From Octopus vulgaris (taxonomy: Eukaryota), in the NCBI GenBank assembly GCA_951406725.2, contig OX597840.1:16740001-16804000 (forward strand): DNA of 64,000 nucleotides, written 5' to 3'. The notes under the pieces were generated by a model, which worked only from the letters and a program-made list of their open reading frames with translations, was not told the origin of the DNA and did not search any database. Below, in pieces: positions 6,300-57,551 of the stretch; the first letter of the stretch is position 1; every line of letters starts with the position of its first letter. Position numbers and translations under genes: made by a program.

Positions 6300-6931
6300 C
6301 ACGCATGCTTTTAGTTGAAACTGTTGTGGTGACGTGATCGAAGAGCCTGAACGCGCCATTTTTCTTTCTGGTTTTACAGAATAAGCAGGGCCGCTCCATC
6401 AGCAAAGAAGAACAATGAGCAGCGATCCGATTTCTCTGGAAAGGTTGTGTTCGATCAACCGTGCAAGACACAGTGTTTTACTGGCCAACAAACTGAAGCC
6501 AAGAATTCGCATCAAACGCCAAAGCCTATAGTCGAAGAAAGTTTTGTTGTTGCATGACAATGAATGCTCACACACGGTCGCCCAGACCGTTGAAATCATT
6601 AACCAATTGGGTTTTGAGGTGCTGGAACACCCTGCCTACAGCCCAGATCTCACCCCTTCCGATTATCATATCTTTGGACCGCTCAAAGATGGTTTACGAG
6701 GTTGTCGGTTTCCTACGGATAAATATGTGAAGGAAGCAGAGCATAAATGGCTGCACGACCAACCAAAAACCTTCTTCTTGGAGGGAATATGCAAGCTTGT
6801 GGACCGCTGGACCAAGTACATCGAAAAGGAAGGAGACTATATAGAAAAATGATGTACTTCTTTATCCCCTGCTTTTGTGTAAATACATTGAAAAAAACAA
6901 GAGTGCGTATATCTTTTGACTCTCCCGCGTA
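6300..6931 (+). mobile_element. internally deleted mariner transposon (transposase C-terminal pseudogene, ORF 6544-6852)
   Basis: LLHDN...HPAYSPDLTPSDYHIFGPLK...GICKLVDRWTKYIEKEGDYIEK carries the mariner HDN and YSPDL motifs; right TIR-like end CTTTTGACTCTCCCGCGTA; N-terminal remnant KEEQ*AAIRFLW. Left boundary approximate. Confidence 0.9.
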
Positions 6932-14371: not shown

Positions 14372-14484
14372 TATTTACATTATTTACCTTATTTACATTC
14401 GACGGATATTTGTCCTCGTCTTGTTTGTTGTTAACACAGCGTTTCGGCTGATATACCCTCCAGCCTTCTTCAGGTGTCTTGGGG
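14372..14484 (-). mobile_element. 3' fragment of hammerhead-bearing SINE (HHR 14433-14478)
   Basis: Near-identical to 57127-57233. GACAC-CUGAAGA-A-GGCUG...CAGCC-GAAACGCU-GUGUU (cleavage triplet mutated to GCU); tail (AATGTAAAT)n. Confidence 0.8.
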
Positions 14485-14507
14485 ACGTAAACACACCAGC
14501 ATCAGTT

Positions 14508-20314: not shown

Positions 20315-21762
20315 AGTGTGGCTTCCGCGCGGGTCGAGGGACCACTGACATGATATTCGCCGCCCGCCAGCTCCAGGAGAAATGCATGGAGCAGCACCTT
20401 GACCTCTGCATGACCTTTGTTGACCTCACCAAGGCCTTTGATAAAGTCAGTCGGGAGGGACTATGGAAGGTCATGGGAAAATTTGGTTGCCCCAGCAAAT
20501 TTATTGCAATTGTCCGCCAGTTCCACGACGGAATGACAGCCAGAATCCTTGAAGACGGCAACTCATCTGAAGCCTTCCAGGTGACCAACGGAGTCAGGCA
20601 GGGCTGTGTCCTGGCCCCAACACTGTTCAGCATCATGTTCTCGGCAATGCTGTCCGACGCCTTTAGGGACTGCAAGTCCGGTATCGACATCAAGTACAGG
20701 ACAGACGGGAAACTTTTCAACTCCAGAAGATTGCAGGCTATCACAAAGTTGAGGGAGACAGTCGTCAGAGACTTTCTCTTTGCTGACGACTGCGCCCTTA
20801 ATGCAATCGATGAGCAGGAGATGCAGCTCGAGATGGACAGGTTATCATCAGCCTGTGACAACTTCGGTCTCACCATCAGTGCCAAGAAAACCGAAGTGAT
20901 GTTTCAGCCAGCCCCCGGCAAACAATACCATGAACCTCAGATAAGGGTGAACGGATGGAAAACTTCACCTACCTGGGCAGCACTCTCTCCTGCAATGCCA
21001 ACATAGATGCTGAAACCATCAACAGAATCTCCAAGGCAAGCAGCGCGTTTGGGAGACTGCGAAAGAAAGCCTGGGAGCGGAGAGGAATCAGCCTCAACAC
21101 CAAGCTGAAAGTCTACCGGGCAGTCGTGCTTACCACCCTACTATACGGCTGCGAGACGTGGACTGCTTACCGAAGGCACGAGCGCCAGATAAACCACTTC
21201 CATCTCAGGTGTCTTCGGAACCTCCTTCACATCCGCTAGCAGGACAAAGTCCCAGACACGGAAGTTCTGAAGCAGGCAGATCTCCCTAGCACCATCACAA
21301 TCATGCGCAAGGCCCAGCTGAGATGGGCGGGCTACGTCTCCCGCATGTCCGACACTCGCATCCCAAAACAGCTCTTCTACGGTGAACTCGGCCAGGGCAG
21401 GCGCAAAGTCGGAGGGCAGAAGAAGCGCTACAAGGATAGTCTCAAGGTCTCTCTCAAAGACTTCTCCATCGGAACAGAGACCTGGGAGACACTTGCTGCC
21501 AACCGCTCATCCTGGCGCAGCGCAATCACCGTGGGAGCAGGGACAGCCGAGGAGGGACGGATTCGGTCAGCGGAGCAGAAACGTCAGATGCGTAAAGCCA
21601 GAGCCGCCTGCACTAGTAGTACGGCCCCTACCCACTTCTGCCCCACCTGTGGGAGGGGCTTCCTTGCCCGGATTGGCCTCACCAGCCACCTCCGGTCTCA
21701 TGGCGCCAGTTCCATCAGATGATGTCAGTTGGTCATCTTCGAACCGAAGGACGAACATTATT
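20315..21762 (+). mobile_element. 5'-truncated RTE-clade LINE (RT plus C2H2 finger; one frameshifting deletion and one stop)
   Basis: [87 protein letters not shown]. Frameshift near 20955, TAG at 21237; short 3' UTR ending GGACGAAC(ATT)n; inserted in the microsatellite of a family A SINE (20270-20314 / 21765-21968). Confidence 0.95.
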
Positions 21763-56409: not shown

Positions 56410-56883
56410 ATATATATATATACATATATATGAAGAGGAACTAAGAGTATTTCTTAAAGTTCAAAATCACGATGACATGGGTATGTCCGACTTTTCCAGT
56501 TTCGATTATTGTCGTCATTGGCACGCGGTCTTAGTATTTTTATTCATTTGCCCGCTTTCACCTTTGTGTTTAAGTGAAAACTTGTGGTTTGGTCACTTTG
56601 ACTGTGACCTTAAGAGACATGTGAAAAATTCCATCCAAGGATTATTGTTATTGTACATATTATATCATGGTATATTATATATATATATATATATTTCTTT
56701 TTCTTTTACTTGTTTCTGCCATTTCACTGCGGCTATGCTGGAGCACCAACATCGATCCAAGGACTTAATCTTTGTAAGCATAGTATTTATTCTATCAGTC
56801 TCTTTTGCCGAGCCTCTAAGTCACGGGGACGTAAACACACCAACATCGCTTGACAACCGATGGTGGGGGACAAACACAGACAC

Positions 56884-57004
<121 letters not shown>

Positions 57005-57126
57005 CATATATATATATATATTCCTTTATTCTTTAATTCTTTTACTTCTTTCAGTCATTTGACTGCGGCCATGTTGCAGAATGACCTTAAGTGGAGCAAA
57101 TCGACCCCAGGACTTATTCTTTGTAA

Positions 57127-57276
57127 CATTATTTACATTATTTACATTTGACGGATATTTGTCCTCATCTTGTTTGTTATTACGACAACGTTTCGGCTGA
57201 TATACCCTCCAGCCTTCATCAGGTGTCTTGGGGAAATTTCGAACCTGGGTTCTCATTCCTAATGTATTTTTCGATA

Positions 57277-57329
<53 letters not shown>

Positions 57330-57423
57330 GAGGTCACTGCCTGGAATCGAACCCGGAATCTTGGGATTAGTAGCCCGCGCTCTTAACCACTACGCCATAT
57401 GCCCGTGGGCATATAGAACTGTA
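57127..57423 (-). mobile_element. tRNA-headed SINE carrying a hammerhead ribozyme, 13-bp TSD
   Basis: Head 57404-57331 with A box TGGCGTAGTGG and B box GGTTCGATTCC, then (AAT)n, HHR 57227-57182, tail (AATGTAAAT)n; TSD TTATTCTTTGTAA at 57114-57126 and 57424-57436. Confidence 0.88.
57182..57227 (-). ncRNA. minimal type I hammerhead ribozyme within SINE
   Basis: GACAC-CUGAUGA-A-GGCUG(GAGGGUAUAU)CAGCC-GAAACGUU-GUcGU; one extra C in the stem I 3' strand. Confidence 0.8.
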
Positions 57424-57551
57424 TTATTCTTTGTAAGCCTAGTACTTATTCTATCGGACTCTAGTGCCGAATCGCTAAGTTACGGGGACGTAAACACACT
57501 AGCATCGGTTGTCAAGCGATGTTGGGGGAACAAACACAGATACACAAACAT

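Follow-up and report, generated by a model that had tools for sequence, protein, structure and literature searches.

Introduction

RNA polymerase III (Pol III) is normally reserved for small non-coding RNAs. In the prevailing view, coding retrotransposons use RNA polymerase II (Pol II), whereas Pol III-driven ones are short and non-coding (PMC10886601). Herein, we describe a repeat of Octopus vulgaris that may cross this division. It occupies positions 57127-57423, minus strand, of the window, the whole 64,000-nt stretch of DNA that was analyzed (assembly GCA_951406725.2, contig OX597840.1, positions 16,740,001 to 16,804,000), and combines a tRNA-like head with a minimal hammerhead ribozyme (HHR). 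A first-pass annotation made from the letters alone had read it as a free-standing Pol III short interspersed element (SINE) with its own ribozyme. By sequence comparison, the unit is a solo pseudo-LTR (pLTR) of a ~2.6-kb autonomous Penelope/Poseidon-type retrotransposon, and Penelope transposition of the ordinary kind accounts for the window copy. The unusual feature is that the repeat opens with a tRNA-like head carrying A and B boxes, which makes the family a candidate for a coding retrotransposon under a tRNA-type promoter.

The closest described systems are PAc (Poseidon_Ac) of Anolis carolinensis (PMC11167929) and the Penelopes of Adineta vaga (PMC3846280). Like the octopus family, they have one open reading frame (ORF) for a reverse transcriptase (RT) with a C-terminal GIY-YIG endonuclease that starts in the pLTR, a hammerhead close to the start codon, a pair of 3′ end points separated by ~30 nt, partial tandems, inverted 5′ copies, palindromes at the inverted junctions, solo pLTRs and short target-site duplications (TSDs). 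The two end points correspond to two internal RT start sites, and both target strands are cut and extended (PMC11167929). Inverted pieces and TSDs are described as parts of the Penelope copy layout in PMC8557442 and PMC3846280. The octopus family differs by its tRNA-like head with A and B boxes and by a unit free of TTTT (T4) runs, neither of which is reported for these elements in the available text.

Other systems share single features with the family. The TRIMp3 elements Cassandra, Helenus and Ajax have a small-RNA-derived Pol III promoter in their terminal repeat, for which insertion of a SINE was proposed; however, they are non-autonomous LTR elements of 0.3-1.3 kb, whereas the octopus family is a 2.6-kb coding Penelope type (PMC10886601). 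The schistosome repeats Sm-alpha and Sj-alpha are short, tRNA-related hammerhead repeats present in tens of thousands of copies (PMC2770079). They are non-coding SINE-like units with canonical hammerheads (PMC4209133), while the octopus ribozyme is of the minimal type and lies within the coding start of an autonomous element. Non-LTR retrozymes are short hammerhead repeats derived from the pLTRs of Penelope-like elements (bioRxiv 10.64898/2026.07.22.740005). Retrozymes form head-to-tail tandem arrays, whereas the octopus copies are dispersed, with inverted pieces and TSDs; the words "tRNA" and "Pol III" do not occur in the available retrozyme text. In the literature, with repeat databases and supplements outside the search, we found no Penelope element with a tRNA-derived or Pol III promoter. 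The octopus repeat library (PMC13282606) may already hold the family under some name. "Hammerhead" and "ribozyme" are absent from the available main text of that paper, and the family may be catalogued without its Pol III-type head having been noted.

Results and Discussion

Family searches were run on the 2.8-Gb genome containing the window. A 28-mer from the ribozyme had 4,477 exact matches, a 24-mer from the head 3,293, and a 20-mer from the tail, with one base downstream restricted, 3,232; at ~6% divergence between copies, these counts make a true copy number above ten thousand likely. In 27 of 30 loci selected by the head, the ribozyme-side part of the unit (T part) comes after it, in agreement with the expectation that head and HHR occur together. 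Shared sequence further upstream was present in 9 of 56 head matches, and the junction between an ORF end and the head has 536 exact matches genome-wide. The sequence upstream of this junction translates as an RT thumb followed by a GIY-YIG-type region. Of 28 loci selected by their RT, 23 have the head downstream of it. The tail, in turn, continues directly into the ORF body (68 matches to the tail-ORF junction). In partial tandems, the repeat follows the stop codon of one ORF and precedes the body of the next; one such tandem is complete at locus L262, where the unit measures ~2.5 kb. It is unlikely that the long copies are assembly chimeras, since hundreds of independent junctions were found. 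Among the first 100 of 123 matches to a non-microsatellite pattern placed upstream of the T part, none had an ORF context because the ORF lies upstream of the head.

These junctions and tandems replace the free-standing SINE by part of an RT-GIY-YIG coding element. The autonomous element that was expected to share the 3′ 110 nt was found, and it shares the whole unit including the head. The proposed link to a Penelope pLTR was correct in that a Penelope-like element is involved, but no SINE captured a Penelope 3′ part; all parts are the element's own pLTR. Whereas a SINE2 is a non-coding unit, here the whole unit, head included, belongs to an autonomous element.

In the majority sequence of the family, the frame that begins at an ATG 20 nt into the T part stays open over at least 746 aa; one alignment segment holds 2 sequences only, and the ORF end there is unreliable. 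The longest natural stop-free copy is 569 aa, and none of the 53 candidates scored is fully intact. The family ORF matches RVT_1 (E=1.5e-7), and its endonuclease region aligns with an Anolis protein, which we take to be PAc from inference; the Pfam GIY-YIG profile scores on neither of the two. In pairwise comparison, the family ORF is 37% identical to the Anolis protein over 569 aa and 28% identical to a Neptune-like ORF of the same genome. The peptide overlying the ribozyme is common to the family ORF and an 847-aa relative, P0002 (53% identical).

Copy structure was examined in 90 tail-selected loci taken in chromosome order. An inverted piece is present on the left side in 57 of the 90, and 41 of 49 inverted T pieces stop at 138-149, with the tail present in 1 of 49. 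TSDs of at least 8 bp occur in 28 of the 90 loci vs 4 of 447 shuffled pairs, with a length mode of 12-13 bp (18 of the 28); the simple TSD search found none in the other 62. The copies are dispersed as singles or inverted pairs, not as head-to-tail ribozyme arrays. Among 146 copies, the 3′ ends are bimodal, with 72 at T-part positions 135-159 and 74 at 167-175. The latter extend ~30 nt past the 9-nt repeats, an optional tail. The annotated 9-nt repeats are therefore present but are not the family's 3′ end. The window copy has the following parts:

57038-57529, minus strand: host repeat (family A of the first-pass annotation), split by the insertion; matches (D5, D7, D9) the uninterrupted copy 56702-56870
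57424-57436, no strand: TSD, 5′-side copy, identical to 57114-57126; 12-13 bp is the family mode
57411-57423, plus strand: inverted last 13 nt of the Penelope "tail" at the 5′ end, left arm of the hairpin; reverse complement of the family 3′ end
57330-57410, minus strand: tRNA-like head opening the pLTR; best match tRNA-Arg, 5′-end pile-up
57410, minus strand: G at the sharp 5′ edge of the family, putative RNA start from the 5′-end pile-up
57387-57397, minus strand: A box by sequence, aligned to tRNA positions 8-18
57344-57352, minus strand: B box by sequence, aligned to the tRNA T loop
57279-57329, minus strand: (AAT)17 microsatellite, ORF 5′ leader; length varies between copies
57127-57256, minus strand: N-terminal codons of the RT-endonuclease ORF; first in-frame ATG 57256-57254, frame of at least 746 aa in long copies
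57182-57227, minus strand: minimal type I hammerhead with 5-bp stem I, unpaired A, 6-bp stem II and palindromic stem III
57216-57227 and 57187-57194, minus strand: hammerhead core; cut predicted at 57187/57186, 60 nt from the 3′ end
57127-57148, minus strand: 9-nt repeats at the more upstream of the family's two 3′ end points; putative reverse-transcription start site
57114-57126, no strand: TSD, 3′-side copy, matches 57424-57436
14379-14485, minus strand: second pLTR copy by sequence comparison, 5′-truncated, ribozyme region only

The clean 13-bp TSD, the A box, the B box and the (AAT)n of the first-pass annotation were all where it had placed them. Its single-piece insertion into the host SINE is borne out by the flanking 13-mers and by an empty target site, found once, in another, uninterrupted host-SINE copy (D5/D9). 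The 5′ hairpin is present as a sequence but is not a feature of the unit. The family sequence goes ~30 nt beyond the 3′ end of the window copy, and the final 13 nt of this extension sit inverted at its 5′ end; the hairpin is this inverted-tail junction plus a 5-bp palindrome native to the head, and the true upstream sequence of the family fails to lengthen its stem. The window copy differs from the family majority by 2.7%, vs a mean of 6-7% for copies. An Rfam scan of the unit gave no match at the gathering score and no hammerhead match; below threshold, a weak tRNA match was found (E=3), and ARAGORN found no tRNA in the unit.

The family has a sharp 5′ edge at the head. Of 30 segments reaching the first 20 nt of the head, 21 stop there (8% expected, P=6e-17), against a background truncation of 0.4% per nt over the T part and the greater part of the head. 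Of 130 different head contexts, 40 continue upstream and 90 have their end between +1 and +12, with no end at -6 to 0; this pool was enriched for long copies, which makes the edge informative and the proportion not. Relative to the head palindrome, no context ends within 7 nt to its left and 90 end within its first 12 nt. Four of the seven junctions that were inspected share one meeting point, the G located 13 nt upstream of the A box, and have no extra G. The ORF end is missing upstream in 25 of the 30 head-selected loci, and 3 of the other 5 are near-identical duplicates. Run-off at an RNA 5′ end would leave such a hard edge, and we infer that transcription begins at this G.

The head itself points to Pol III. 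Among 25 distinct genomic tRNA sequences of six isotypes, it best matches tRNA-Arg (z 7.7 and 7.0). The A and B boxes are canonical, have canonical spacing directly behind the putative start and show fewer changes than the remaining head sequence (5.3% vs 6.9%, P=0.009). No such box pair was found in 80 related loci, 43 of which have at least 350 nt past the ORF end. Additionally, the 2,479-nt majority contains 0 T4 runs in the sense strand vs 27 in the antisense strand (P=0.007 by base shuffle, P=0.03 by synonymous shuffle), and a ~125-nt stretch missing from the majority is T4-free in 4 of 4 copies checked. Individual copies of the family hold 0.5 T4 per kb over 30 copies, and 6 of 18 copies of at least 1.5 kb are T4-free. 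For 80 relatives from other organisms, the median is 3.7 T4 per kb, with 2 of 80 T4-free and 0 of 48 among those of at least 1.5 kb; all 17 relatives with a T content of 24% or less carry 1-10 runs. Two other Penelope-like families of the same genome have T4 at 8-9 per ORF and 6.4 per kb.

Based on these results, we consider it on balance probable that the window unit is a solo pLTR of a Penelope/Poseidon-type element whose RNA starts at a captured tRNA-derived promoter read by Pol III. The parts of this reading differ in strength. Initiation by Pol III at the head appears reasonably likely, and the Pol III promoter proposed in the first-pass annotation is plausible. That Pol III makes the full coding RNA is a more tentative proposal. 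Equally tentative is the evolutionary account, in which an autonomous coding Penelope may have captured a tRNA-Arg-like SINE head as its promoter, lost all TTTT over 2.6 kb and come to be transcribed by Pol III from end to end.

In the proposed mechanism, the RNA would begin at the captured promoter, at the G 13 nt upstream of the A box. Pol III could transcribe the whole 2.6 kb of the TTTT-free unit and stop only in flanking DNA, and internal priming would make an exact RNA 3′ end unneeded. The endonuclease would make a staggered cut of ~13 nt. RT would start inside the 5′ end of the ORF and run off the RNA 5′ end, leaving a solo pLTR; with priming ~300 nt from the RNA start, most products would be SINE-sized solo repeats. 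cDNA synthesis would be primed by both target ends, each using one of the start sites, and the two products would be joined head to head, the second of them being only 13 nt long in the window copy.

Several points weigh against Pol III. A TATA-like stretch at -30 to -24 from the putative start fits Pol II as well. The promoter of Drosophila Penelope is internal and of Pol II type (PMC2377424), and rotifer pLTRs have an initiator-like motif and a Pol II-like promoter (PMC3846280). The T4 test is modest, as the sense strand is only 22% T; G4 runs are also absent from this strand, and two LINE ORFs of the same genome are T4-poor, with 1 vs 3.0 and 2 vs 4.8 expected. The relatives that served as T4 controls are single copies, several of them frameshifted or partly inverted. 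Pol III-made retroelement RNAs are short, up to ~1.3 kb (PMC10886601), and an uncapped RNA would need another translation route. At the short palindrome of the head, the cDNA could itself be stalled or folded back, which would contribute to the pile-up of 5′ ends. Only one of 30 tail-to-ORF loci (L555) both begins in the head and continues into the ORF. Finally, RNA start and polymerase are both read from DNA copies; the sequence records listed as containing the family are all contigs, none of them entered as RNA.

The same solo pLTR could instead arise from Pol II transcription, driven by the TATA-like box at the end of an upstream tandem copy. The tRNA-like head would then be an old SINE fragment, passive or giving short Pol III transcripts, and the T4 absence an accident of composition. 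Beyond the TATA-like stretch, the start has a pyrimidine-purine step, there is an initiator-like motif of the kind described for rotifer pLTRs, the Drosophila element has an internal promoter of Pol II type, the P values for T4 absence are just 0.007-0.03, and dependence on an upstream copy suits Penelope biology. Against this account stand the canonically spaced A and B boxes just behind the start, and T4 is present in every one of the 48 long relatives and the 17 low-T relatives and is tolerated by the other two Penelope-like families of the genome. The junctions that meet the start G without an extra G (4 of 4) also argue against it. We regard Pol II transcription as a serious but doubtful alternative to initiation by Pol III.

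The ribozyme is an inherited Penelope hammerhead, predicted from its motif to fold only as a dimer. Family motif and pairing fit the minimal, dimer-dependent hammerhead type (PMC4209133), in line with the dimer action suggested initially. The core is intact in the family majority and in place in the window copy. Stem I has 5 of 5 pairs in the majority, but 2 of 5 are mismatched in the window copy, whose ribozyme is probably impaired. Folds of three ribozyme stretches were no stabler than shuffles (z 0.10 to -1.44), and in single-strand folding the hammerhead did not stand out from shuffles. The cut predicted ~60 nt from the 3′ end was placed correctly. Its severing of the priming tail is no difficulty, being the normal Penelope layout, and cleavage was dispensable for insertion of the anole element in vitro (PMC11167929).

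The first-pass annotation had also proposed that the ribozyme acts as a copy-number brake or a processing step, which would have shaped the short copies. The intact majority core speaks for such a role, and the sole common core variant (28 of 146 copies) hits a free core position and makes a conservative amino-acid change. However, the cut site shows no excess of 5′ ends (3 of 31 within 8 of 121 nt, ~2 expected), minimal HHRs cleave weakly and only as dimers (PMC4209133), and the anole element inserts without cleavage. The core is also not more conserved than its flanks among copies (10.7% vs 7.2% changed). We consider a brake or processing role improbable.

Still less probable, and very unlikely overall, is that the short head-to-tail units are a self-propagating Pol III SINE lineage copied from short copies by the Penelope enzyme in trans: short copies do far outnumber long ones (3,293 head vs 536 junction matches), are slightly younger (6.0% vs 7.2% divergence) and carry the window-copy allele in 15 of 93 vs 0 of 53 long copies (the short set being enriched for window-like matches), but this case rests on a single diagnostic site, 2 of 30 unbiased allele carriers (L535 and L536) hold ORF pieces in the same insertion, half of the copies, including the window copy, lack the tail, and run-off at the RNA 5′ end accounts for the excess of short copies without a separate lineage. 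The allele has 108 exact matches genome-wide. The excess follows from priming sites ~300 nt from the 5′ edge.

If transcription by Pol III is correct, a 2.6-kb coding element under a tRNA-type promoter would break the division of labor between Pol II and Pol III. One RNA would serve as uncapped messenger for the RT-endonuclease and as template for thousands of SINE-sized solo repeats, combining a LINE and its SINE in a single unit, and the question would arise of how an uncapped RNA gets translated. Even if Pol II is the polymerase, the family marks a Penelope RNA start at base resolution and illustrates how, through internal priming, one coding element gives rise to SINE look-alikes by the thousand, which may be misfiled in repeat libraries. 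The family may also offer a route to tRNA-headed hammerhead repeats such as those of schistosomes.

The leader ahead of the start codon is an (AAT)/(AAC) repeat in the window copy (57279-57329) and in other copies. A/C-rich leaders help cap-independent translation in some plant viruses.

Additional Observations

Two other Penelope families of the genome were considered as partners of the repeat: one is young, Neptune-like and has a 781-aa ORF, the other is older and carries a hammerhead of its own. Both were rejected, as neither shares the repeat. The Neptune-like family (L061-L066, for example L065:1138-3481) is abundant, and many of its copies are 97-99% identical. Its RT-GIY-YIG frame of 781 aa is intact, with a second frame of 300-400 aa upstream; the 3′ region spans ~1 kb, and a pattern search found no standard hammerhead motif in it. 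In a 5′-truncated copy of the older family (L065:5250-6354), the 5′ end abuts a perfect 30-nt tail of the studied family in inverted orientation, either by nested insertion or by a template switch between families. A first metagenome scan found nothing.

Further copies of the studied family lie at or beside the same A/T-rich host-SINE site as 57114-57126 (L028:1678-1700 and L241:90-110), and L028 shares its 3′ junction with the window copy. The truncated copy 14379-14485 adjoins host-SINE sequence via short microhomology. TT directly follows the tail in 33 of the 90 tail-selected loci. At L542, L550, L560 and L569, template jumps lead from the head start to the ORF of another RNA, with A-rich bases at the joint. 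L357-L359, L164 and L167 are segmental duplications with element copies on one contig (C1). Elsewhere in the window, 20317-21722 is a LINE fragment with long open frames, presumably RTE-like from its motifs, and 6532-6852 resembles a mariner transposase fragment.
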